From Eubacteriales bacterium (GTDB lineage: Bacteria; Bacillota; Clostridia; Lachnospirales; Lachnospiraceae): a stretch of 64,000 bases of DNA. The notes under the pieces are model-generated. The model ran no database searches. It was not told where the DNA came from and saw nothing but the letters and a program-made list of their open reading frames with translations. Shown here piece by piece: positions 45,694-63,788 of this stretch. Positions within the stretch are counted from its first letter, which is position 1. Each line of letters opens with the position of its first letter. Location of the stretch: positions 2,087 through 66,086 of the forward strand of contig JAUNHA010000006.1 of NCBI GenBank assembly GCA_030524135.1, read 5' to 3'. The position numbers and the translations under genes were made by a program.

Positions 45694-46158
45694 CTATTCA
45701 GAAATTTCTTTTTCGTACAGGACCCGGTCTTCATCCTTAAATACATTGAAGACCACCCGGTCAATTTCCGCCTCATGCTCCTCCAGAAACCGGCTTACCG
45801 TGCGCACGGCGATTCTTGCCGCCTCGTCATTCGGGAAATGAAATTCTCCAGTACTGATACAGCAAAATGCCACAGACCGGAGCCTTCTCTTCACACAGCA
45901 ATCCAGTACACTCCTGTAGCAGTTCTCCAGATCCTTTCGCAGACTGTCCGTAAGGTTCCCTGTGACGATTGGTCCTACTGTATGAATGACATACTTTGCG
46001 GGAAGATTATAACCCTTTGTCAGCATTGCCTGACCGACAGGCTCCTCATAGCGCTGACCATACTGGATCCGTTTACGGTTCATCTGATGGCTGCACTCCG
46101 CCCGCAGTTCGATTCCTGCCGCGCTGTGAATGGCATTCCCGACCCCTATCCGAATCAC
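45694..46158 (-). pseudogene. macro-domain ADP-ribose hydrolase gene lacking its 5' part
   Basis: Homology begins abruptly at ...NAIHSAAGIELRAEC... and continues through YVIHTVGP and ISTGEFHFP. An in-frame TAA lies two codons upstream of the track start. The expected GDIT...VDAIVNAAN N-terminal region is missing. Confidence 0.75.
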
Positions 46159-47956
46159 ACATTAGATCAGACCTGATATCTGCTGATACATCCGGGGGTA
46201 TGTAACCGGCCGCGCCGAAGAAAGATGAATAGTCATCCTCCGGGCAGCCTTTCAGGTAAATATGGCAGACGGGAACACCATCTTTATAAATAATATACAC
46301 CTTTTCGATAAGAACTTGCAACAGAGTTACAAGCACTTCCGGCGTGGCTTCCGCAGCAAACTCTTTAAATGATTTCAGCTTTTCCCTCACGCCCACCAAA
46401 TCCTTTGTGATTTTCGCGTGCAGCATATCTTCCTCTGATAATTCATTCAACAGCCGCTCCTTCTTTTCCAGCTCAGCAGACATCACAGCTATATCATTCT
46501 GAATGAACTTTCTGATTGTCATATCAGCTTCACGCATATTCCTTACCTGAGCAGCAATGTCGTTTTTCAAACTGCCGATAGACGCTTCCAATTCCCTGAC
46601 TTCCTGCTCGTTGGTGTTATCCTTTATCATAGCTGAAAGTCTTGTCTCGAAAAGCTCTTCTGCATATTCGTTGTTCCTGTCACTCAAGTCTGCTATTTTT
46701 GAAACGACAAATTCATCCAGAATAACTCCATCTATTGCCTTGAACTGGCATTCCTTCTTTCTGAAACCTGGACACACATACTTAAATCTTGGTTTTCCGT
46801 TCTGCCACCGCCCTGATTCCGGCACAACTTTTAGCCGCTTTCCACAGTGAGGGCAAAAAATCAATCCTGCCAAAAGAGCGTTCGTCCTGCGATGCGGTCT
46901 GTTATATCGCTCTGCAATCGTTTCTAATAAATCCTGTGCCGCAATCCATGTGGCTGATGATATCATCCCCTCATGCTTTCCAACCGAAACGATCCACTCT
47001 TCCACTGGCTTCCGCTCTGTCGCTTTCACAAATCTGGGGTGAAAAAATGTCGAATTCTCATCTTCCAATTTCATTTGATCAGTCTTGTTATAAGCAGAAA
47101 TTCCGTGCAGACCATCATAATCCGTTTCATCTCCCGAGATATTTGCGCCCTTATCCATAAAAAACAGGTAAGCTTCTCTGTCTGCCGTGCAGTAAATAGG
47201 ATTTTTCAGGATATCCTTAACTGCCAGCATTGTAAATGCTGCCCCATTTTTAGTTCTATACTCCCGATTCAATATTGTCGCGGTTGCATTCAGCGAGCGG
47301 GTATCCAAAAAAGTCTGAAAAAGCTTTTTTATCAATATCCGTTCTTCGGGAATCGGAACCAGAAAACTCACAGCACTTTTATTCTTCCCACTTCCTGTCC
47401 CTACTCGTTCCTTCGTAAATCCTGTAGGTGTTGTACCACCCATCCATCGACCATCCTTTGCCAGTTCCATCAGATTATCCTGAATTCTTTCTGTAAGGAT
47501 GTCTCGCTCAAACTCTGCAATTATAGCCAGAACCTGAATGATGATTTTTGAAGTGCTGATTTGCGTATTTATATTGTTTGAGCATACCAGCAAAATCACA
47601 TCCCGTCGTTCCAGATACTCAAGGAGCCTCATCAAATCCGATGTCTTACGGCTGATGCGATCCAACTTATAACATGCAATCGCTTTGATCTTTCCTGCAT
47701 CTATATCCCTAAGCATCCTCTGAAAATCCGGACGGTCGGAATAATAACCGCTTAGACCTTTATCACTGTATTCCAAGAACTCATACTCTTCAGGAAGATT
47801 CAACTGACTTGCCGCATAATCTTTACTTTGCTTAATCTGGACGCCAATGCTGTCTCCCTTATTTGTAATCACGGATTTTCTGCTGTAAACTGCTACCTTC
47901 CGATCATCTGCCAGCAGTGTGGTCCTTCTCTTTCTTTTTGTAATCACTTTGCTCAC
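46073..47956 (-). CDS. large serine recombinase
   Basis: 627 aa with a GTG start after AGAGGAAAGGA. Resolvase-type N-terminal domain (VAVYSRKS...), recombinase domain, zinc-ribbon (CPHCGKRL...YVCPGF) and coiled coil. The last ~85 nt overlap the macro-gene remnant in another frame. Confidence 0.9.
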   Translation of the reverse strand: MSKVITKRKRRTTLLADDRKVAVYSRKSVITNKGDSIGVQIKQSKDYAASQLNLPEEYEFLEYSDKGLSGYYSDRPDFQRMLRDIDAGKIKAIACYKLDRISRKTSDLMRLLEYLERRDVILLVCSNNINTQISTSKIIIQVLAIIAEFERDILTERIQDNLMELAKDGRWMGGTTPTGFTKERVGTGSGKNKSAVSFLVPIPEERILIKKLFQTFLDTRSLNATATILNREYRTKNGAAFTMLAVKDILKNPIYCTADREAYLFFMDKGANISGDETDYDGLHGISAYNKTDQMKLEDENSTFFHPRFVKATERKPVEEWIVSVGKHEGMISSATWIAAQDLLETIAERYNRPHRRTNALLAGLIFCPHCGKRLKVVPESGRWQNGKPRFKYVCPGFRKKECQFKAIDGVILDEFVVSKIADLSDRNNEYAEELFETRLSAMIKDNTNEQEVRELEASIGSLKNDIAAQVRNMREADMTIRKFIQNDIAVMSAELEKKERLLNELSEEDMLHAKITKDLVGVREKLKSFKEFAAEATPEVLVTLLQVLIEKVYIIYKDGVPVCHIYLKGCPEDDYSSFFGAAGYIPPDVSADIRSDLMCDSDRGRECHSQRGRNRTAGGVQPSDEP

Positions 47957-48261: not shown

Positions 48262-49041
48262 TCAGAACTTCATCGGCAACGCTGTCTTGGAGCTCGCCCC
48301 ATTGTAGATCAGGAACACCTGCATAAGGTATTTCTTACTTGCCGGAAACGAATTGCCGATAGCGGCAGCATCGCGGTAAATCTTCTGCGGGTCTTTCTCC
48401 CGGAGCTTCTTGACCAGACGCTTGCGGTTGTATTCGCCTTTATAAAGATCAATGAACTGGGAGAGACCCAGCATATTTTCTTTGCGGAAAGTGTTCGGCT
48501 CACCATCCCATGCTTCCAACAGAATGTTCAGCACTTCCTGATATTCCTCTATTCCAATCTTCTGGAAAATCTTAAAAGCGGTGCTGACGCAGGCAATGCG
48601 CCTGCACCCCAGCTCCTCGCCGTAGTCCAGCCGGAGGCCGACCGCCTCCGTTGCTCTCTGAAACGATATCACCACTGGGTCGCCCGCACAAATCAGTGCG
48701 CGGATTTTTGCCCCTGCCGTGAGTTTGGAAGATTCGCCGGTCTGCTGCGCAAAAAGCGTTGCTTCGTCGCTCTCTGTCATACCAAAATAGACCTTGCACT
48801 TAATCATCAGGTCTTCCCCGTGATTACGGCTCTTTCTGGCTGCAATGGTGTGCTGACCGTCAAAGACATAGTAGTGACCGTTGCGGAAGCTCACCTTTGG
48901 TTCGTTTGCAATATGTTCATTGAAGTTTTTAACGATACGATGTACTTTCTCCATACTCAATTCCCGCTGATAGGTCTCTCGCGGAATTTCCAGTTCCGCA
49001 CTGTTGATAGACATAATCTTATACTTTTGATTGCTGCTCAT
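48262..49041 (-). CDS. ParB/Srx-fold protein of the DGQHR/DndB/DUF262-like type
   Basis: 259 aa. The YQRE motif followed by VFDGQHTIAA compares with the YQR...DGQ(H/Q)R signature of that clade. Confidence 0.55.
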   Translation of the reverse strand: MSSNQKYKIMSINSAELEIPRETYQRELSMEKVHRIVKNFNEHIANEPKVSFRNGHYYVFDGQHTIAARKSRNHGEDLMIKCKVYFGMTESDEATLFAQQTGESSKLTAGAKIRALICAGDPVVISFQRATEAVGLRLDYGEELGCRRIACVSTAFKIFQKIGIEEYQEVLNILLEAWDGEPNTFRKENMLGLSQFIDLYKGEYNRKRLVKKLREKDPQKIYRDAAAIGNSFPASKKYLMQVFLIYNGASSKTALPMKF

Positions 49042-52198: not shown

Positions 52199-52645
52199 AT
52201 GACGTTCGGAGAAAAAGTAAAGCAGGAACGAAAGAAACTGAACCTGTCGCAAGATGAGCTTGCTGCAAAAGCTTCCGTGTCCAGGCGCACCGTTACGTCC
52301 TGGGAAACTGATAAGGCATTACCGAGAACCAGAAAGGTTTACGAGACCCTGGCTGATGTACTCCAGGTACCTGCCGCCTATCTGATCAATGAAGATGATG
52401 CCTTTCTCATTGACGCCGGGGAGCAGTTTGGATACAGAGGGAAAAAGGGAGCAGAAAAGCTGATGGCCGAAATCACCGGACTCTTTGCCGGTGGTGAAAT
52501 GGCGGATGAAGATATGGATGCGCTGATGTTCGCCGTTCAGCAAGCGTATGTCGATGCAAAACGAAAGAATAAAAAATACACCCCAAAAAAATATCTCCAT
52601 GTTTCCGAAGGCGATAATCCGTCGCCCGATTCATCAAATAAATGA
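52199..52645 (+). CDS. XRE family repressor (ImmR-like)
   Basis: 148 aa. HTH KKLNLSQDELAAKASVSRRTVTSWETDK. It sits directly upstream of an ImmA-type protease gene. Confidence 0.85.
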   Translation: MTFGEKVKQERKKLNLSQDELAAKASVSRRTVTSWETDKALPRTRKVYETLADVLQVPAAYLINEDDAFLIDAGEQFGYRGKKGAEKLMAEITGLFAGGEMADEDMDALMFAVQQAYVDAKRKNKKYTPKKYLHVSEGDNPSPDSSNK

Positions 52646-52674
52646 TGAGCCGCGCGTAATAAGGGGGTGGGGCT

Positions 52675-53184
52675 GTGCGCCTGAATTCAAATGATAAAAT
52701 CATCCAAAAAGCAAACCGTCTCCTCTGCCGAGCCGGAAGCAGAGAGCCGCGGCACATCTGCCAGTTCCTCGGCATAACGGTTATTGAAGCGCCATTTAAA
52801 CAACAAAAAGGCGTTTATAAGGTCATTGAGAGGAACCGTTACATTTTTCTCAAGGAAGACCTGAATCCTGTCATGAAGGATATCGTTCTCTGGCACGAAA
52901 TTGGTCATGACCAGCTGCATCGCAAGGAAGCCACGCAGTTTCAGGAATTTAATCTGTTTGATATGACGACCAATCGCATGGAATACGAGGCAAACCTCTT
53001 TGCGGCACAGCTGGCACTGGACGAAGAACAGCTCTGGGAATATATCCTTCAGGGGATGGATGACGTCTCCATTGCAAAAGCCATGTATTCCGATACAAAT
53101 CTGGTTGCCCTTAAAGTCAGCATTATGTCCAGACCAGGGTATAATTTGCGGGTGCCGGAGCATCGGAATGATTTTTTGAAATGA
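52675..53184 (+). CDS. ImmA/IrrE family metallopeptidase
   Basis: 169 aa with the HExxH motif (WHEIGHDQLH). Paired with the upstream XRE repressor, as in ICEBs1 and phage immunity modules. Confidence 0.85.
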   Translation: MRLNSNDKIIQKANRLLCRAGSREPRHICQFLGITVIEAPFKQQKGVYKVIERNRYIFLKEDLNPVMKDIVLWHEIGHDQLHRKEATQFQEFNLFDMTTNRMEYEANLFAAQLALDEEQLWEYILQGMDDVSIAKAMYSDTNLVALKVSIMSRPGYNLRVPEHRNDFLK

Positions 53185-53854: not shown

Positions 53855-55302
53855 TTATCGTTTTCGATATTTCCGTCCTTTCGTGGTACCGTTGTCCTCC
53901 AGCAGTTCAAGCTGCACCATGGCACGAAGCAATTCTTTTGTCCGGGTTTCCCTCACATCAAGAACCGCTACAATATCCGCTACATTATGCCATGCTCCAT
54001 CATTCAGGAAGTCCAGAATCTTATTATATTGCGCCTGTGTTTTGGCGGACACATTTTTTCTGGCGCTTTTTTTGTGAAAGAAAGCGTCAGAATCGTTCTG
54101 TCCGGATCAAACTGTTCCTCTATAATCGGTTCTGTCCAACCCTCATCTTCCCACATGTTAAAGATGTTCGGAACGCCGCTTCCGGCACGTTCTCCAATGT
54201 TGATAAGGTTGAACATTTTCATTAGTACCTTATTTCGAGGGTCAGATTCCCCGCCTCTGCGCATCTGTTCCTTTCCGGTTCGGATGTATCCGGGATTCGC
54301 AAAAACCAGCTTATCCGGCTCCTTACGGATCACAACACCTCGTACACCGTAAAAATCCGCGTTCGTGAGGCAATTCGCCAACGCCTCTCTCAGTGCTTTA
54401 TGCACTGGCGTGTCATCAATCCGGTCACCACCCTCCATTCGAAAAGGCACCTTCACATCCTTGATGAGCTTGTTATAAACCCGAAAATAGAAGTCGCAGA
54501 TATTTCCAGACCATTCCCCGGAACTGGATTGAAGGCGATCCGTCCAGCGAATTGCCGGATCTAACATCTCCCGGTAATCCAGAAAGTATTCCGGGAAATG
54601 CCGGACAATGTTATATTCGTTTCCGAACATCAACATACCTGCCGCTGTAGGATGCAGCCGCTTATCCTCCGACGAAACCGCTGCCGCCCCTATACTACGG
54701 AGGTATTCCTCATCGTTTAGTCTCTCAAAGGGATGGCCCGCTTTCAGCGTTCTATGCCTGTTTCGATAACCCTGAATTGTTTCTTTATTAAGGTCAGAAA
54801 GCTCTGCATCGTTCAGCACATCCATGTCTACCGTATTTTCTTCCTGATCCCGCAGCATGGCCTTAACCTGAAGCCTCGTGCATTTATAATCCCCGGAATG
54901 TATCCTTCGGTATGTGCCACCAAACAGGTCATTGTTGATATATACCGGCTTCTGACTTCTTTTTGCCCTTGGAACTTCAATTGCAATGATCACATCATCA
55001 TTCACTTCATAGGCCGTTACATTTGATTCCGACAGTAGATTAAGGCTTACCTTATTTTGGTTGTGCAGCAGATTCCACAGGTTATCCAGTAACTTCTCTT
55101 TATCTGCCGCTTTCAGCCCAGTGGGCTTCCAATGCTTATCATCCAACTCCTCAACGCCCAGAATAATTACTCCGCCATAGGTATTCGCAAAGGCAGAGTA
55201 GGTCTCCCAGATATCATTCGGAAGACCGCCTCTGGCCTTTTTCACTTCCCTGCGGTTATCTTCCTTGTATTTGTCAAATTTTTGAATATCAAATAACGGC
55301 AT
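53855..55302 (-). pseudogene. Schlafen/AlbA_2 + HATPase_c_4 + wHTH regulator-like ATPase gene, frameshifted in an A7 run
   Basis: ORF 54004..55302 covers the AlbA_2 region (...AFANTYGGVIILGVEE) and the HATPase region (REALANCLTNADFY...FANPG). ORF 53855..54052 is its wHTH tail. On the coding strand, an A7 run (T7 at 54067-54073 on +) separates the frames, and an 8th A would join them as ...FTKKSARKNVSAKTQAQYNKILDFL... Confidence 0.75.
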
Positions 55303-55494: not shown

Positions 55495-58005
55495 TCATAA
55501 GGGTTTTAAAGATAAATAATGACATAAGTCTAGTGCGAACATCTGCTTCCTTGCTACTGAATGCATTCCGGTCATCAAATCGCTTCTTAAAACAGCAACT
55601 AACCCGTTTCGATTACTATAAACGAAGCACCCCTGCATCAGTTGGCGAATAGCTTTTCTATCGTTGTTGATTAACACTTTCATTTTCAACGCTTGTTCAA
55701 TAGCCGAGCCAGCCGTCAGCTCTTCACTCATATAACTTGCAATGATTGGTGCCAATTCATCTGAAATTGGATATTTTCTAAAATATGCAGATGTAAAAGT
55801 TTTACGAGTATTATCCTCTCGCGCAATATAATCATAACTATCCACAAATGCCTTATCTTTTTCTTTGTGCAAGTCTGGTATGGTATTGTCTCTTAACGCC
55901 TCCACACATTTTATTACCGAGCTACACCTTCTTTTAAAATAGCCATTACCAATTTTATTCGCTCTCTTCAAATAGGAGATTAACTTATCGTACTCATTAC
56001 AATATTTAATCAATTCCATGCATGGCCGAGGCGTTCCCTGTGTACTAAAGGCCGAAACAACAAAAGGCCATATTTGCTGTGCAGTGAAGAATTGCGCATT
56101 TTGAAGAATACCTGCTTTATTAACACCCAGAGCAAACAAGTCAAGCAGAAAATCATCTATCGGCAAATCCAAGCGATTCTGCTCAAACCGAGTATTTGCA
56201 GATAGAACGTCTTGATTAAACTCTGCAGGTATCCCCGTTAAAGTTCGTTTTATATTCTGAATATCTATAGGTAACGCATTAGGATCATTAGGCGCTATTC
56301 TAACCGGCAATCCCTCCTTCCCGCCGCGATTCTTAAGCAAGTAGATACTATGAGCGTTTTCTAATGTCTCCACAAGATAACTAACATCGTTCTTAGTCGG
56401 AGGAATGATTGTCAGTTTCTCCAATAGTGCCACCCATTCAGGTTTATCATCTGGAATATAGGGCATTATTAAATACATATTGCGAAGATATCCAACTTTG
56501 TCTTCATCCGATTTGGAAACTGCAATTCGTCTTGACAAATCTTCTATAATTACTTCTCGGTCTCGAACAGTAGATTCAGGTGCGGGAATGTTTTTCAAAT
56601 ACGCCTTTAATTTTTTCCCTTGTGATAGAAGGCTAAAAAACTGGTAAATATCATTTGCCGTAGTAACCGTAATATCGCGAGAACATCCTTGACCTGCATG
56701 GAGACCATTCGCTCTCAGTGTTTGTAAAATAGTAAATTTATTTACATATGACAACAAATTTGCTTTTTGTTCTGCATTTGTGTTTTTATCTTTCCAAATA
56801 AAATCGAACTCGGGAGATCCTTTTGAGATTCCCGCCTTGAACTCTTTAAGAACTTCTGTGCCAAATTTATAAACATCAGATTGAATATCTCCCTCTTTAT
56901 ACATTGCCTGGATTCCCTTTGCTTGTACAAGACACGCTTTTATTACCAACTCAACAGAAGCTCCCAAAAGGCCAATTATCGGAGCATACTTTGTTTCTTG
57001 ATGCTTAGAACGACAAGCTGTAGGAATTGACAGTCCGTATAAGGCCAAGAGATAGGATTCGATTCCACCATACAAAATCGGAATCGCTTTACTTTTCATA
57101 AACTGCGGCATACAATCCTTCCCGTGGGTCCCCTCAAAACGGTCCGGGTCAATCAGGGAGAGGAACAGGTGGAAATCGTCCTCTTTTCCATTATGAGGTG
57201 TCGCCGTCAGGAGCAAAAAGTTCTTTGTAATGTTAGAAAGCAGTCTGCCCAGAGAAAACCTGCGTGTATATTTTATCTCGCCACCCCAGATGGTGGCAGA
57301 CATTTTGTGTGCCTCATCGCAGACAATCAAATCCCATTCCGAGATTTTTAGCTTTTCCTGTATAGCATCGTTTCTGGCCAGCTTATCCAGACGGCAGATG
57401 CACAAGTCCACTTCGTTGAACACATTGCCAGTGGCCGCAGATTCAATTCTGTCGTTGGTCAGAATATCAAAATGTAAATGAAATTTCTGGAATAACTCAT
57501 CCTGCCACTGCTCCACAAGGCTTCCCGGCGAAACAATCAGGCAGCGTTTTAGGGAGCCACGAGCGATCATTTCCTTGATGAACAAACCGGTCATAATCGT
57601 TTTACCGGCACCCGGATCGTCTGCCAATACAAATCTTAGAGGGAGACGCGGCAGCATATCCTGATAGACCGCAGAAATCTGATGCGGCAAAGGTTCTACG
57701 GATGAAGTATGCACTGCCAAATATGGGTCAAATAAATGTGCAAGACCAATACGATACGCCTCTGAAGCCAAACGCACCTGATCCCCATCTGCATCAAAAC
57801 TCCATGGAAGATGACTATCTTTTACCTGAATGCTTTCTTCATCTGCTCGATAGAGCAACTGTGTTCCGGGAACACCCTTGCTATTTTTGTATGTAATTTC
57901 TATCACATTGGTTCCATACCATTGGACGGCTACCACATTAACAGGTTCATTCCCCGCTATTCCAGTCAGATGGCTACCCACTGTAATATCTTCAAGTTTT
58001 GCCAT
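55495..58005 (-). CDS. chimeric ORF: RapA/SNF2-like helicase N-lobe (aa 1-298) fused to a 538-aa region of unknown function
   Basis: The N-terminus has a Tudor/SH3-like segment, motif I DDPGAGKT, motif II DEAH and motif III LLLTATPHNG. After ...DPDRFEG the SNF2 pattern stops, with no helicase-C motifs IV-VI. GC drops from ~60 % (57121-57180) to ~38 % (57061-57120) at the junction. Confidence 0.7.
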   Translation of the reverse strand: MAKLEDITVGSHLTGIAGNEPVNVVAVQWYGTNVIEITYKNSKGVPGTQLLYRADEESIQVKDSHLPWSFDADGDQVRLASEAYRIGLAHLFDPYLAVHTSSVEPLPHQISAVYQDMLPRLPLRFVLADDPGAGKTIMTGLFIKEMIARGSLKRCLIVSPGSLVEQWQDELFQKFHLHFDILTNDRIESAATGNVFNEVDLCICRLDKLARNDAIQEKLKISEWDLIVCDEAHKMSATIWGGEIKYTRRFSLGRLLSNITKNFLLLTATPHNGKEDDFHLFLSLIDPDRFEGTHGKDCMPQFMKSKAIPILYGGIESYLLALYGLSIPTACRSKHQETKYAPIIGLLGASVELVIKACLVQAKGIQAMYKEGDIQSDVYKFGTEVLKEFKAGISKGSPEFDFIWKDKNTNAEQKANLLSYVNKFTILQTLRANGLHAGQGCSRDITVTTANDIYQFFSLLSQGKKLKAYLKNIPAPESTVRDREVIIEDLSRRIAVSKSDEDKVGYLRNMYLIMPYIPDDKPEWVALLEKLTIIPPTKNDVSYLVETLENAHSIYLLKNRGGKEGLPVRIAPNDPNALPIDIQNIKRTLTGIPAEFNQDVLSANTRFEQNRLDLPIDDFLLDLFALGVNKAGILQNAQFFTAQQIWPFVVSAFSTQGTPRPCMELIKYCNEYDKLISYLKRANKIGNGYFKRRCSSVIKCVEALRDNTIPDLHKEKDKAFVDSYDYIAREDNTRKTFTSAYFRKYPISDELAPIIASYMSEELTAGSAIEQALKMKVLINNDRKAIRQLMQGCFVYSNRNGLVAVLRSDLMTGMHSVARKQMFALDLCHYLSLKPL

Positions 58006-58907: not shown

Positions 58908-60111
58908 CTAAAGTATATCTGCATAATATCTTCTGTTGATATTAGAAAAAATCACTTTGGCTGGGAAAAGCTTCATTCCCATTGCTGCCATTCCAACAAC
59001 ACTACATGCCCATTCCCTTAATTCATTCGGAAGTCGAAAGCTTGTCGGTTCTCCATCCTTTAGAATTGTTACTATTGGAATGAAATTTTTGTACACCCCC
59101 ACCGATAATACATTAAAAGTTTGAGAACCTTCATGTAACGACAAAAGAGGTTGCTTTCCCGAATCAAAATATACCCTCCCGCCCCTTTTATTCAGAAATG
59201 ATTCTTCATCGAAGGGAATTACAGGCTCAATAGGCAATTTGTTTCTTCTGCATTCAAAATATCTTGCTGATTGCTCACAAGCAAACGCATTATAATATTC
59301 ACCTTGCATATCTATGTCAGATCGAATCTGTTCTGCAGATTCAAAATGATTCATAAAATTCAACAGAGCATTGAATGTAACCAAATCATCCGAATAAATA
59401 CCGGGCAGGTTGGTATAGTTCGCTCTGACAAGTGCGTTTCTGAAAGACCAAGCGTTCTCTGCAAAAATATCATTAGTAGCTGAAAAGCCGAGGGTTCTCA
59501 AATACTTGATAAAGAATACCGCTGTGGTTCTTGTGTTGCCTTCTCCGAAGATATGGATTTGCCATAACCTCGAAACAAAGACTGCAAGATGATGAATAAT
59601 TTCTTCCATCGAAAGTCCTTTGTAGCTAAAGTCTTTCTCCTGCGAGAAATCATATTCAAGGGTTGCTCTCAGTTCCGAAGCGCTGCCATAAAGGACAGTC
59701 GCTCCGTCAAGCACCCATTCTTTTTTGTGATATTGTAATCTCTTATCTTGCCTGCGTGTTTATAGATACCCTGAAACAGCTTTCGGTGGATAGAGATATA
59801 CTCGGGGAGAATGAAAAAGCAGTTTCCGAAAGTATCTGTGCGATACGGGATGATACCTTATCCGCTTCTTCTGTACGCTCGTCGTCCGACAAATGTGTCG
59901 GTCTTTCCTCATAATAGCTGTCTATGAGATTTTGCGCTTCTTTTATTGTAATTTTCCCCTCAATATTTTGAATGGCCGTATCAATCAAATATTGGGAAGG
60001 TTTCAGTCCGTCCACCGCCTGAAGTCCGATTGCCGTACTCCACGCATAGCCTTTGCTGAGTTTATCCGGCTCAGACTCCTTCAGATATTCCTTAAATGGG
60101 TCTTTATTCAT
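58908..60111 (-). pseudogene. Fic family (AMPylase-type) gene with two frameshifts and a non-canonical 3' end
   Basis: ORF 59743..60111 is the typical N-terminus (MNKDPFKEYLKESEPDK...AIGLQAVDGLKPS). ORF 58908..59714 carries the Fic motif HIFGEGNTRTTA. The segment joining them reads in a third frame: ...PEYISIHRKLFQGIYKHAGKIRDYNITKK... The shifts are at the G4 run 59804-59807 and the T6 run 59721-59726. Confidence 0.8.
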
Positions 60112-60137
60112 CTTATTTCCTTATTTTCTTTGCTTTT

Positions 60138-60857
60138 TTAATCCGTCAGCAACCTGCTTAGCAGTTGTTTTCTATTATTGATAAACATTTCCGTTATTTG
60201 ATAACTGTCCGTATCTTCATACGAGCAAGTATGCAGCTTTCCATCGTCAAATGTCAATATCTCTGCGTCCGGCAGACCTAACAAAATCGGAGAATGTGTT
60301 ACGATAAAGAATTGCGAACCTTTTTTCGCACATTCATAGATTTCAAGCAATAGCGTTAATTGTCTTTGCGGCGACAAAGCTGCTTCAGGCTCATCGAATA
60401 TATAAACTCCATCTTCCTTTAGCTGACTCTGTGCGATTGCAAGAAAACTTTCCCCGTGTGATTTTTCGTGATACTTTTCCGATGGGTGTTCAATATCAGC
60501 ATATTCTTCTTCCATAGTCGCTACATTATAAAAACTTTCCGCCCGAAGAAAATATCCCCATTTTGCTTTGCGATACCCTCTGCCAAGCCGCATTGCTTCA
60601 CACAGTTCCGAATGTGAGTCATAAGTAGAAAAGCTGTAATTTTTTGTGCCGCCTTCAGGATTAAATCCATAGGCTATCGCAATAGCCTCCAGCAATGTGG
60701 ATTTTCCACTTCCGTTTTCTCCGACAAAAAAGGTAACAGGCTTACTAAAAGTCAGCTTTTTCAGTCCCCTGATAGCTTCAATTGACCTTAAATAACTTCC
60801 TCGTTCAATTTTATTCCAATCAATCTCTACTCCCTGAACAAAAAGATTATTCATCAT
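60138..60857 (-). CDS. small stand-alone ABC-type (AAA_21-like) ATPase
   Basis: 239 aa. Walker A GENGSGKST, signature-like SHGESF, Walker B IFDEPEAALS and H-loop THSP. It overlaps the upstream WYL gene end by 11 nt. Confidence 0.8.
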   Translation of the reverse strand: MMNNLFVQGVEIDWNKIERGSYLRSIEAIRGLKKLTFSKPVTFFVGENGSGKSTLLEAIAIAYGFNPEGGTKNYSFSTYDSHSELCEAMRLGRGYRKAKWGYFLRAESFYNVATMEEEYADIEHPSEKYHEKSHGESFLAIAQSQLKEDGVYIFDEPEAALSPQRQLTLLLEIYECAKKGSQFFIVTHSPILLGLPDAEILTFDDGKLHTCSYEDTDSYQITEMFINNRKQLLSRLLTD

Positions 60858-61837
60858 CTACCACTCCATTTATCGCTATCGACTCCCGAAGCATATTCTT
60901 ATACTGTTCTTTCAAGCTCTCCGGTGCAAGTATCTGCACCTTGCCGTTAAATCCAAACAGCCAGCCGAAGAATGTAGGACTTGCCGATACTTCGGTCTGT
61001 ATCCGGAACGAAGTCATATCATAGGCAAGGGTGGTAACATCTTCTCCGAAACGGTCAACCATCGTTTTCATCAGGCTGTTATCACAGCGCAAGTCTACCT
61101 TAACCTTTTCTCCGGGGAACATAAAGAATACTTCTTTCGTAAAGTTCTCAATATCAAAATCATCGGGCATTGGAAGAACTATTTTTTCCAGCATATCCGG
61201 TATCCCTGCAATGCGATCCACTCTGAAATTGATAACCTTTTGTTTCTTTTCGGAATAACCAATCACATAATAATAATCGCCGCTCCAAAGAAGCTTATAT
61301 GGACTGAGCTTATATACTTCTCCCTTGTTTTTCAGTTCTTTCTTCTTGAGTCCAGTGTAATCATAATACTGGAAGGAAATCTGTTTCCCAGTATTAATGG
61401 CATCGTTTATGGTGTCAATGATGTAGTAAATTTGCTCATTGTCCGGCTTAATTCGATTGACAACATAATTATTACGCTTGAGCTTTTCTACCTGTCCCCG
61501 GACTTGTCATCGTATGTATCTTCTCAATCAGCGCTTTGCTTTTCTTATCGGTAATCACTCTTGAGGACTCCACAGCGTCAATCAGCAGCTTTAACTCCGG
61601 CAATTCAAACTGCCGGCTTGCCACAAAATACTTACACTGCGTAGAATGAATAACCACTATATCCATTCCGAACTCCTGCAAGGCGGCAATATCCTTTGCA
61701 AGCGTTACCCGATGTGTCGATATATCATATTCATTCTTCAAAATATCCAATATTTGATTTGTAGTCAGAGTGTGTTCCTCATCGGTTCGTTCCTCTAAAA
61801 TTTTCTTTATATATAAAATTCTCGGTTTTACTTCCAT
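60847..61837 (-). pseudogene. WYL-domain transcriptional regulator gene, frameshifted
   Basis: ORF 61472..61837 is the wHTH N-terminus. The frame of ORF 60847..61266 stays open upstream to about 61490 and encodes ...QVEKLKRNNYVVNRIKPDNEQIYYIIDTINDAINTGKQISFQYYDYTGLKKKELKNKGEVYKLSPYKLLWSGDYYYVIGYSEKK... The frames meet at the C4 run 61496-61499. Confidence 0.75.
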
Positions 61838-62112
61838 TTTATATCCTCTCCGATTATCTATTCCTCTATGCCTAATGCTCCAAATAATTCACTTTCAATT
61901 TTACTTATCTGCTCTATCGGTATCGCTGTCTTATCTCTCATAACAACGGTACGCTCATAATCATCAATTCTTTTTACCGCAGGTCAGTAATAATCTAAAT
62001 TTACTTGAGGTATTTTTTTGTGTCAATCTCTTGACCTATTTAAAGTATACAGGAAGCTTTCATTTACACTGGAGAAACAAAGATTCCATCAGCATTTCCC
62101 AAACATAAAAAA

Positions 62113-63513
62113 CTACTCCAAATCCTCCTTCGGCATGATCCGAAACTCCTGTATCAGGAACAGAACCGACAGCGCAAAGGACAGCAGATCCGTCACCGGC
62201 TGTGCATAGGCGATTCCCTCCACTCCAAAGAACCGGGGCACGAGCAATAACAGCGGAATCAAAAACACAATCTGCTTTGAGAAAGATAAAATTGCTCCTT
62301 TTGCCACTTTTCCAATGGATGGGAAAAATGTCGCGCAGCATATCTGGATTCCATTTAAAAAGACACAGAACAAAAATACACGCATAAACGGAATCGCAAA
62401 CTGAAAATACAGGGGATCCTCATTGGCACCGCCGAACAGAGAGAGAATCGGCTGCGGAAAGATCTCAAAGATCACCCAGACTGTTGTGGAAATTACCACT
62501 GCCGTCTTCAAGAACAGCTTCACCGTCTCCCGCACACGCCGGAACTTTTTTGCCCCGTAATTATAGCTGCAGATCGGCTGCGCCCCATTGATCAGTCCAA
62601 TGATCAAAGCAATGAAGATGACATTAACCTTCATAACAATTCCGGCTACCGCAATGGGCGTGTCCGCTCCATAAACAGATTTCTCTCCATATATACGCAG
62701 GACGTTATTCAGCGTAACCTGGACGATCACATTGGAAAACTGGAAAAAAAACGAATTAAATCCCAGCTTACAGATCAATAATACATCCTTTCTCCTTGGT
62801 AGAAAATCTGCCAAAGAAAAATGAACTGACTGAAACCTTGGAAAGTACGCTACCAGTATCAGCGCGGAGATCACCTGACTGATCACCGTCGCCCACGCTG
62901 CACCTGCGATTCCCCAATGAAACACAAAAATAAAAATCGGATCCAGAATCGTATTTAACACCGCTCCCACCACAATGGCCATCATAGAATAGTTCGGACT
63001 TCTGTCTGCCCGGACGAGCGGATTGATTCCTGTTGAAAAAAGCAAAAACGGAATCCCCAGAGATGTAATTCCCGCATATTCCATTGCGTAAGGCAGGATA
63101 TTATCCGTTGCGCCGAACACCCGAAGCATTGGTTCCAGGAAAGCACGGACAAGTATGCAGATGATCACTCCGCATATAACCAGCGCTCCTGCGGCACTTC
63201 CCGCTATTTTCCTCGCTTTTTCCTCCTCTTTTCCACCCAGCTCCAGATTAAATCCGGCAGCAGAACCAAGTCCCACCATAAGCCCGATCGCCATGCAGAC
63301 CGTTGTCAGCGGAAATGCTACCGATGTCGCAGCATTTCCCAGCTTGCCCACACCCTGACCGATAAAAATCTGGTCGACAATATTGTAAAGCGCATTCACC
63401 ACGTTGGCAATGATTGCAGGAACCGCCAGTGAAAGCAGCAATCCGCCCAGCGGCTTTGTTCCCAATGGATTTGTCATTTCTTCTGATCTAGACATTCTCA
63501 TCTCTCCCTTCAC
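62113..63513 (-). CDS. MATE family efflux transporter
   Basis: 466 aa with 12 predicted TM segments. Its start overlaps the marR-like stop by 4 nt. Confidence 0.85.
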   Translation of the reverse strand: MKGEMRMSRSEEMTNPLGTKPLGGLLLSLAVPAIIANVVNALYNIVDQIFIGQGVGKLGNAATSVAFPLTTVCMAIGLMVGLGSAAGFNLELGGKEEEKARKIAGSAAGALVICGVIICILVRAFLEPMLRVFGATDNILPYAMEYAGITSLGIPFLLFSTGINPLVRADRSPNYSMMAIVVGAVLNTILDPIFIFVFHWGIAGAAWATVISQVISALILVAYFPRFQSVHFSLADFLPRRKDVLLICKLGFNSFFFQFSNVIVQVTLNNVLRIYGEKSVYGADTPIAVAGIVMKVNVIFIALIIGLINGAQPICSYNYGAKKFRRVRETVKLFLKTAVVISTTVWVIFEIFPQPILSLFGGANEDPLYFQFAIPFMRVFLFCVFLNGIQICCATFFPSIGKVAKGAILSFSKQIVFLIPLLLLVPRFFGVEGIAYAQPVTDLLSFALSVLFLIQEFRIMPKEDLE

Positions 63514-63788
63514 GCAAACTTCGAAAGTAACTTATTCAATAATTCTGAAAGCTGCATCCGCTCATCCTCCGTCAGCGCAGCCGTAAATTCCTCTTCCAGA
63601 GACTCACCGATACGTTCCAGCTCTTTTCGCATCTCAAGGGCCTGCTCTGTAAGGCCGATCACCCGGCTTCTCGCATCCTCCGGATTTACTTTACGGCACA
63701 CAAACCCTTTTTTCTCCAGCTGATCTATCAATCCGATCGTCGTCGGATGAGTCAGTGAATAATACTTTTCCAGATCGATCTGTCTCAC
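63510..63788 (-). CDS. MarR family regulator, N-terminally truncated
   Basis: The 92 aa start inside the wHTH (...THPTTIGLIDQLEKKGFVCRKVNPEDARS...). The same frame is open upstream only to a TAA near 63850, and no normal MarR N-terminus is present. Confidence 0.65.
   Translation of the reverse strand: MRQIDLEKYYSLTHPTTIGLIDQLEKKGFVCRKVNPEDARSRVIGLTEQALEMRKELERIGESLEEEFTAALTEDERMQLSELLNKLLSKFA

Follow-up and report, generated by a model that had tools for sequence, protein, structure and literature searches.

Remnants of a probable WYL-headed ATPase-Fic cargo at the decayed edge of an integrated element in a Lachnospiraceae genome

We analyzed a 64,000-nt stretch of contig JAUNHA010000006.1 (positions 2,087 to 66,086 of the forward strand; assembly GCA_030524135.1) from a Lachnospiraceae bacterium, hereafter the window, and focused on a locus at about 62.1-58.9 kb of its minus strand. 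The locus carries five features: a promoter-like site with a short palindrome, the remnant of a YolD-like gene, a pseudogene of a WYL-domain regulator, an intact gene for a small ATP-binding cassette (ABC)-type ATPase, and a Fic gene fragment that is fused in frame to the 3' end of a DUF3800-family gene. An earlier note on this DNA had proposed that the WYL, ATPase and Fic genes form a WYL-controlled defence module. The gene layout given there is correct, in that the ATPase reading frame (60857-60138) overlaps the stop codon of the WYL gene by 11 nt and the Fic gene begins at 60111, 26 nt after the ATPase stop codon. The block 60138-61837 is indeed AT-rich: its GC content is 40.1% compared to the window mean of 48.2% (standard deviation 3.8 in 1700-nt windows), which places it in the lowest 4.3% of the window's 1700-nt stretches. 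The frameshifts that the note had pointed out were also confirmed by alignment with two intact relatives, one being located in the WYL gene and two in the Fic gene. The DNA between 61975 and 59407 is 87-88% identical to that of intact loci elsewhere, and this homology ends inside the Fic gene.

The regulator pseudogene (60847-61837, minus strand) was delineated by its open reading frames (ORFs), Pfam matches and alignment with intact relatives. It is split into an ORF at 61837-61472 (121 aa), which contains the helix-turn-helix (HTH) part, and a second ORF at 61497/61266-60847 (216/139 aa), which carries the WYL and WCX domains. The frame changes near 61501, where the window contains one base more than both intact relatives. 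The encoded protein is 91% identical to the intact 329-aa relatives. The window piece matched WCX, whereas the intact relative (P0122) matched both WYL (3.7e-13) and WCX (1.4e-7) and, weakly, HTH_11 (0.036), so that the complete architecture of an HTH, a central WYL and a C-terminal WCX domain is present in the relative and split by the frameshift in the window copy. The WYL gene is conserved at 78-100% identity across thousands of gut Firmicutes sequences. IMG/VR contained only two relatives of the WYL protein and none of the ATPase, and a plasmid collection gave matches to the WYL protein only, all of them at or below 49% identity.

The ATPase gene (60138-60857, minus strand) is the only one of the trio that is still whole. 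It encodes a stand-alone, minimal ABC/SMC-head-type protein of 239 aa, as shown by its ORF and by Pfam matches to AAA_21, AAA_15, SMC_N and ABC_tran. Its Walker A (GENGSGKST), SHGES, Walker B (FDEPEAALSP) and THSP motifs are invariant in 36 homologues. The AlphaFold model has a pLDDT (predicted local distance difference test) score of 80.8 and resembles only generic ABC/SMC-head folds in the PDB, where fold and sequence searches returned generic ABC, SMC, MutS and GajA proteins with TM-scores of 0.40-0.50. Partial PADLOC matches to AriA, PtuA and GajA were found at the Walker A and the Walker B/H-loop ends. No full-length system-specific ATPase model of PADLOC or NCBIfam was matched, as the similarity was confined to these two ends of longer profiles and was far below the curated cut-offs. 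An exact-sequence look-up of the window ATPase returned no record. The family is very large, with at least 8000 scored candidates at E <= 0.001, the best 120 of which are 76-92% identical. On one scaffold of [Ruminococcus] torques ATCC 27756 (NZ_DS264345.1), two small-ATPase copies (L036 and L047) are found about 70 kb apart. As they belong to different clades of the ATPase tree, the family can be present in several copies per genome. In addition, identical or nearly identical ATPases occur in Muribaculaceae- and Blautia-labelled bins of one study (L034 and L035), and a further one (L068) occurs in a Bacteroides-labelled bin, which points to either a binning error or recent transfer.

The Fic gene is more severely damaged. 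It runs through three frames (60111-59743, a short middle stretch and 59714-58908) and alignment with intact relatives shows gaps of 4 bases near 59804 and of 1 base near 59727 in the window copy. The broken gene was searched as separate pieces and natural intact relatives were used for the full length. Of the 377 positions of the PADLOC profile PDC-S72, the window pieces match 1-107 and 134-237, whereas the intact relatives (P0123 and the Fic protein of locus L171) match positions 1-374 with an E-value of 4e-206. Hence, the claim that the locus does not correspond to any named system no longer holds for the Fic gene, which matches a named PADLOC candidate. A literature search returned nothing for 'PDC-S72' and only an unrelated match for 'COG3910', the type to which the ATPase belongs. 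The canonical motif of AMPylating Fic proteins is HxFx(D/E)GNGRxxR. The motif encoded here is HIFGEGNTR or, in its extended form, HIFGEGNTRTTA, in which the second Gly is replaced by Thr and the last Arg by Ala, and the chemistry of the protein may differ because of these two departures.

The note had overlooked that the Fic homology stops at about 59405 and that the remainder of the ORF belongs to another family. According to the PADLOC profile and the alignment, the Fic fragment occupies 59406-60111 (minus strand) and corresponds to residues 1 to about 236 of 371, whereas the 165 codons at 58908-59405 (minus strand) are the 3' end of a DUF3800-family gene. A homologue search with this tail identified 185 relatives, all of which matched it with their C-terminal ends. 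These proteins are about 500 aa long or shorter, and their N-terminal parts are DUF3800. The tail showed no homology in any Fic locus. We thus rejected the idea that it is a swapped C-terminal domain of the Fic protein. As the codons after the breakpoint are a DUF3800-family C-terminus, a deletion must have removed the end of the Fic gene together with the start of the neighbouring gene.

Upstream of the WYL gene, the homology to intact loci begins at 61975-61977 and coincides with the remnant of a YolD-like gene. The last 35 or so codons of this gene are preserved at 61977-61873 (minus strand), as found by tblastn with the 144-aa protein of locus L171, to residues 106-140 of which they are 83% identical. 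The same stump is kept in Clostridium porci. The full-length protein of L171 has a weak match to the YolD family of Pfam, and intact backbones contain a YolD-like gene ahead of WYL.

The promoter and the palindrome that the note had placed before the WYL gene are both present in the sequence, but neither could be linked to the regulator. The TTGACA-17-TAAATT motif is located at 62026-61998 (minus strand), which is 12 nt away from the position reported originally (62014-61986). It has 10/12 matches and is one of 9 promoter-like sites between 58.8 and 62.2 kb, where 8.7 ± 2.6 are expected by chance. It lies in window-specific DNA between the MatE stop codon and the conserved block and, being upstream of the start of homology, outside the conserved module. 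We therefore rejected it as a part of the module. The palindrome GTCAAgagaTTGAC at 62035-62022 is real, overlaps the -35 hexamer and is unique in the window. However, its arms are only 5 nt long (with a 4-nt spacer), and it was found in none of the 194 fetched loci, about 25 of which carry this WYL gene. As it is not conserved, it was not retained as a candidate WYL operator. No inverted repeat of 8 nt or longer is present in 61830-62120.

The note had suggested a search for intact syntenic triplets, and such triplets do exist. In Clostridium porci and similar metagenome contigs (L001-L006 and L011), a 329-aa WYL protein, a 238-aa ATPase and a 371-aa Fic protein are encoded with the same overlap and the same 26-nt spacer in a defence island that also contains ThsB_TIR and GmrSD. 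The second context, which is unrelated to the first one, is represented by L171 and L172, where the trio is located between a YolD-like gene and the genes of a YhcG nuclease, an S24 peptidase and an M78 peptidase. Both types of loci served as intact comparison copies. The ratio of nonsynonymous to synonymous substitution rates (dN/dS) between the window and the intact copies is 0.07 for the WYL gene, 0.06-0.08 for the ATPase gene and 0.01-0.03 for Fic residues 1-236, and the Fic fragment is 97-99% identical to its intact relatives at the amino acid level over 233 codons. The dS values are in the range of 0.35-0.7 across all pairs, and the dN/dS of the window equals that of the pair of intact copies. 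All three genes have thus been under strong purifying selection. As the window does not differ from the intact pair in this respect, the three genes were functional for most of the divergence, and their inactivation is recent.

The association of the three genes is, however, loose. We examined two samples of 80 loci each, one comprising the closest ATPase loci in species-representative genomes and the other comprising metagenome Fic loci at 80-89% identity, 56 of which had more than 1 kb of upstream DNA and were informative. Only C. porci has both the WYL and the Fic gene beside the ATPase gene; the other 79 of the 80 ATPase loci lack this combination. The 148 ORFs flanking the ATPase genes fall into 130 clusters, mostly of housekeeping genes (in Hungatella hathewayi, for example, the ATPase gene is located between metA and a nitroreductase gene). 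The DNA homology between the ATPase loci is confined to the ORF and the flanks are unrelated, which is why we rejected the possibility that the ATPase gene brought its own flanks into the site. Full WYL genes were found in 2/56 informative Fic loci, in both cases with no ATPase gene between WYL and Fic, and were missing from 54/56, and a full ATPase gene was found in none. In six Fic loci, a short 3' remainder of the WYL gene is preserved immediately upstream, and one locus (L144) keeps an ATPase fragment. In nearly all Fic loci (L091-L170), the DNA homology sets in 12 nt ahead of the start codon and ends with the stop codon, and the flanks are unrelated (lysyl-tRNA synthetase, MatE, HsdS, amidase and others). 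The PDC-S72-type Fic gene thus behaves like a cassette. What the earlier note had described as a three-gene module is not a fixed system, since its members are rarely found together: the co-occurrence in other genomes is largely absent despite the intact triplets. What is left of the proposal is a WYL-headed, defence-type cargo, which is dead in this genome.

The WYL gene is part of a backbone of other genes, which is conserved while the cargo varies. This recurring backbone consists of an IMS Y-family polymerase, YolD, WYL, a slot, sometimes YhcG, and then S24 (LexA/CI-like) and M78 (ImmA-like) genes. The WYL proteins that are 78-94% identical to that of C. porci precede varied cargo, and in all of them the homology breaks off near residue 320. 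The WYL gene is followed by the ATPase and Fic genes in the window, C. porci and L171, by Fic alone in L101, L120 and L173, by a 255-aa HExxH protein in L182, by a 393-aa protein without an assigned family in L186, and by DnaJ-like, HIRAN and UzuA-like proteins in L175. In L195 (1033-3897) it is followed by YhcG only and then S24, and in L181 (4986-6773) directly by the S24 repressor gene, so that the slot is empty. The empty-slot forms of L181 and L195 represent the reference state of the insertion site. Besides Fic, PADLOC recognized YhcG as PDC-S02 (4e-136), a 276-aa protein as UzuA-like (8e-49) and the HIRAN protein as similar to PDC-M03B, and in the relatives the WYL gene stands on the same strand directly before the genes of each of these. 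Neighbouring genes in the WYL loci include ThsB_TIR, GmrSD and BrxL.

The surroundings of the locus in the window have the appearance of a mobile element. The region of 46-62 kb has a GC content of 43.7% compared to 49.9% in the rest of the window. It contains a large serine recombinase (46073-47956), a DUF6551 gene (48262-49041), an HTH_3 and Peptidase_M78 pair (52199-53184) and a Schlafen AlbA_2/HATPase_c_4 protein (54004-55302). The adjoining 836-aa ORF at 55495-58005 (minus strand) matches with its residues 1-294 positions 1-294 of the 1176 positions of the PADLOC HmaA SNF2 helicase profile (E 4e-136), and its other 542 residues are without any Pfam or PADLOC match and without a helicase C-terminal domain. 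Its appearance is that of a further defence gene that was broken or recombined. We therefore read the locus as the eroded margin of an integrated element, beside the chromosomal MatE gene. On the other side, upstream of MatE, a MarR-family ORF at 63510-63788 (minus strand) encodes only 92 aa and lacks about 50 N-terminal residues of a normal MarR protein, and the missing part was found in no frame.

Taken together, we consider it most likely, with a probability of roughly 0.75, that the locus represents the outer, decayed end of a mobile element integrated at about 46-62 kb, which carries a dead WYL-ATPase-Fic cargo that was loosely assembled behind a conserved WYL regulator. The slot directly after the WYL gene would be a hotspot for defence-type cargo, which in this case received the small ATPase and then the PDC-S72-type Fic gene. 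Given the overlap of the ATPase start with the end of WYL and the gap of 26 nt before the Fic gene, which has a ribosome-binding site of its own, the trio would be read as a single operon. In the intact copies, a WYL dimer may sense a nucleic-acid signal of DNA damage or infection, similar to the sensing of single-stranded DNA (ssDNA) by DriD, and would then change the transcription of its own operon. The Fic protein with its non-canonical motif may modify a cellular or phage target and stop growth or replication, and the ATPase would be an accessory. How the operon is regulated, what Fic modifies and whether there is a defence phenotype are matters of inference, whereas the anatomy of the locus, the conserved backbone with its variable slot, the purifying selection, the modular and non-obligate association, and the inactivation are shown by the sequence comparisons. 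The latter comprises one frameshift in WYL, two frameshifts in Fic and the loss of the 3' third of Fic by the deletion that fused it to the end of the DUF3800-family gene.

Several points weigh against this interpretation. We found no operator or promoter of the WYL protein that is conserved. The WYL gene of L171 begins 21 nt downstream of yolD; it may belong to a longer operon, and the polymerase/YolD or S24/M78 genes, rather than the cargo, may be its real targets. Since the ATPase family is found mostly among housekeeping genes, the presence of the ATPase beside WYL and Fic may be incidental. PDC-S72, PDC-S02 and PDC-S04 stand as defence candidates only. Finally, the frameshifts rest on one assembly. 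If they were sequencing or assembly errors, the WYL gene and the Fic core would be intact in the organism. All three indels are indeed located at or beside short homopolymers (G4, C4 and A6), and the broken genes show dN/dS values as low as the intact pairs do. However, one lesion is a 4-base gap and another one is accompanied by neighbouring substitutions, neither of which is typical of a homopolymer miscall, and long ORFs elsewhere in the window are unbroken. Furthermore, the missing 3' third of Fic represents a structural change, and the adjoining HmaA gene is a fragment as well. We regard such errors as very improbable.

The remaining alternatives concern the relationship between the three genes. 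The one that we take most seriously, while still finding it rather doubtful, is that there is no functional link at all: WYL would be a DNA-damage regulator of the backbone (polymerase/YolD and S24/M78), and an orphan ATPase and a self-contained, toxin-like Fic gene would have landed in the hotspot next to it. The backbone does exist with an empty slot, the closest relative of WYL with a solved structure is an activator of the damage response (PMC10853764), and the ATPase and Fic homologies are limited to the ORFs everywhere. On the other hand, with the overlap and the 26-nt spacing described above, the cargo cannot avoid being read together with WYL, the arrangement has persisted over a dS of about 0.5, and the cargo of the slot is repeatedly of the defence type. 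The opposite extreme, a dedicated and obligate three-gene system with the ATPase as a sensor, Fic as an effector and WYL as their cognate repressor, appears improbable to us. It is in agreement with the intact triplets in at least two further contexts, with their identical junctions and translational coupling, and with the purifying selection on all three genes while linked, but all triplets form one clade, which indicates a single assembly event. The solitary occurrence of nearly all sampled ATPase and Fic genes, and the fact that WYL-Fic pairs and WYL genes with other cargo or none are common, are difficult to reconcile with such a system.

An intermediate possibility is that the ATPase and Fic are a repeatedly assembled pair (an ABC ATPase with a Fic effector or with a Fic whose activity it modulates) and that WYL is only a generic upstream regulator. 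Fic is the most common Pfam family among the 50 same-strand genes directly downstream of the ATPase (5 loci). The adjoining Fic genes are located at a distance of 25-78 nt and encode proteins of three subfamilies (371 aa with HIFGEGNTR, 252 aa with HPFQDGNGR and 217 aa with HPFREGNGR), two of which PADLOC assigns to PDC-S04 types. The corresponding ATPases form three separate clades on the ATPase tree, and at rough background rates three independent events would occur by chance with a probability of 1e-4 to 3e-3. The ATPase fragment before the Fic gene in L144 fits the same picture, and the combination of an ABC ATPase with an effector is a known defence theme. However, each adjacency is limited to one lineage, Fic proteins of the L082 type with identities of 76% and 69% are solitary, a full ATPase is missing from every PDC-S72 Fic locus outside the triplet clade, and 75/80 ATPases have no adjoining Fic. 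Both families may also favour flexible genome regions, which would inflate chance adjacency, and PADLOC treats these Fic proteins as single-gene candidates. On balance, we consider a repeatedly assembled pair unlikely. It is an equally tentative suggestion that the COG3910-type ATPase is a recurrent partner of Fic, which was joined independently to PDC-S72 and to two PDC-S04 types and possibly acts as a sensor or switch of Fic activity. If this were true, ATPase-Fic would be an undescribed two-gene defence or toxin system of the ABC ATPase-effector kind, and one lineage would have placed it under the control of a WYL regulator.

With regard to this genome, the finding is a modest one: what is left is an inactive relic within an island of defence genes that is itself decaying. 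Its wider value is that the WYL gene marks a slot that collects candidate defence genes on a family of mobile elements and, being conserved, could be used as an anchor when Lachnospiraceae are searched for new defence cargo. Furthermore, the repeated finding of different Fic genes behind one orphan ATPase family offers a first, testable clue to what a very common and uncharacterised ATPase does.

Among the known systems, the locus resembles the operons headed by BrxR and CapW (PMC9122601, PMC9122589, PMC9122588), to which the note had compared it. Shared features are the HTH-WYL-WCX architecture and the placement of the regulator, which on islands and mobile elements heads varied defence-type genes of the same strand. 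A sequence relationship to BrxR or CapW, however, was not detected: a single-sequence phmmer search of all PDB chains at E <= 10, which may miss remote kinship, listed DriD-type proteins and PafBC and no BrxR or CapW. BrxR binds 11-bp repeats with a 5-bp spacer between them (PMC9122601), and an inverted-repeat operator similar to this BrxR box was not found at the window locus. The window-type WYL gene also differs in that it belongs to the polymerase/YolD ... S24/M78 backbone. Its best match with a solved structure is DriD (E 5e-5 over the WYL-WCX part), a WYL activator of the Caulobacter damage response that senses ssDNA (PMC10853764, PMC12041258). Both regulators are set among DNA-damage genes, although the similarity is weak and DriD acts in another organism and on other target genes.

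The ATPase shares with Septu PtuA, PARIS AriA, Gabija GajA and the ATPases of HEC-01 to HEC-03 the ABC/SMC-head fold with Walker A, a signature-like motif, Walker B and the H-loop. It differs from them in being only 239 aa long, without a coiled-coil or insert domain, and in being usually solitary among housekeeping genes, with an adjoining Fic gene in only 5/80 loci. With regard to the Fic protein, VbhT/VbhA is a Bartonella Fic toxin with its antitoxin. SoFic is a Fic defence protein of Shewanella oneidensis, which is reported to AMPylate EF-Tu (preprint 10.64898/2026.07.09.737422). The window-type Fic has the same fold and matches both weakly (SoFic 9e-7, VbhT 4e-5), but it has the non-canonical motif described above and no separate antitoxin gene. 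A further counterpart is the single-gene Fic candidate PDC-S72, which belongs to the PDC sets, a total of 145 candidates from a guilt-by-embedding screen (preprint 10.1101/2024.01.29.577857). The window copy differs from it in being broken and having lost its last third, and in this lineage the ATPase and WYL genes precede Fic, whereas its intact relatives match the PDC-S72 profile from end to end.

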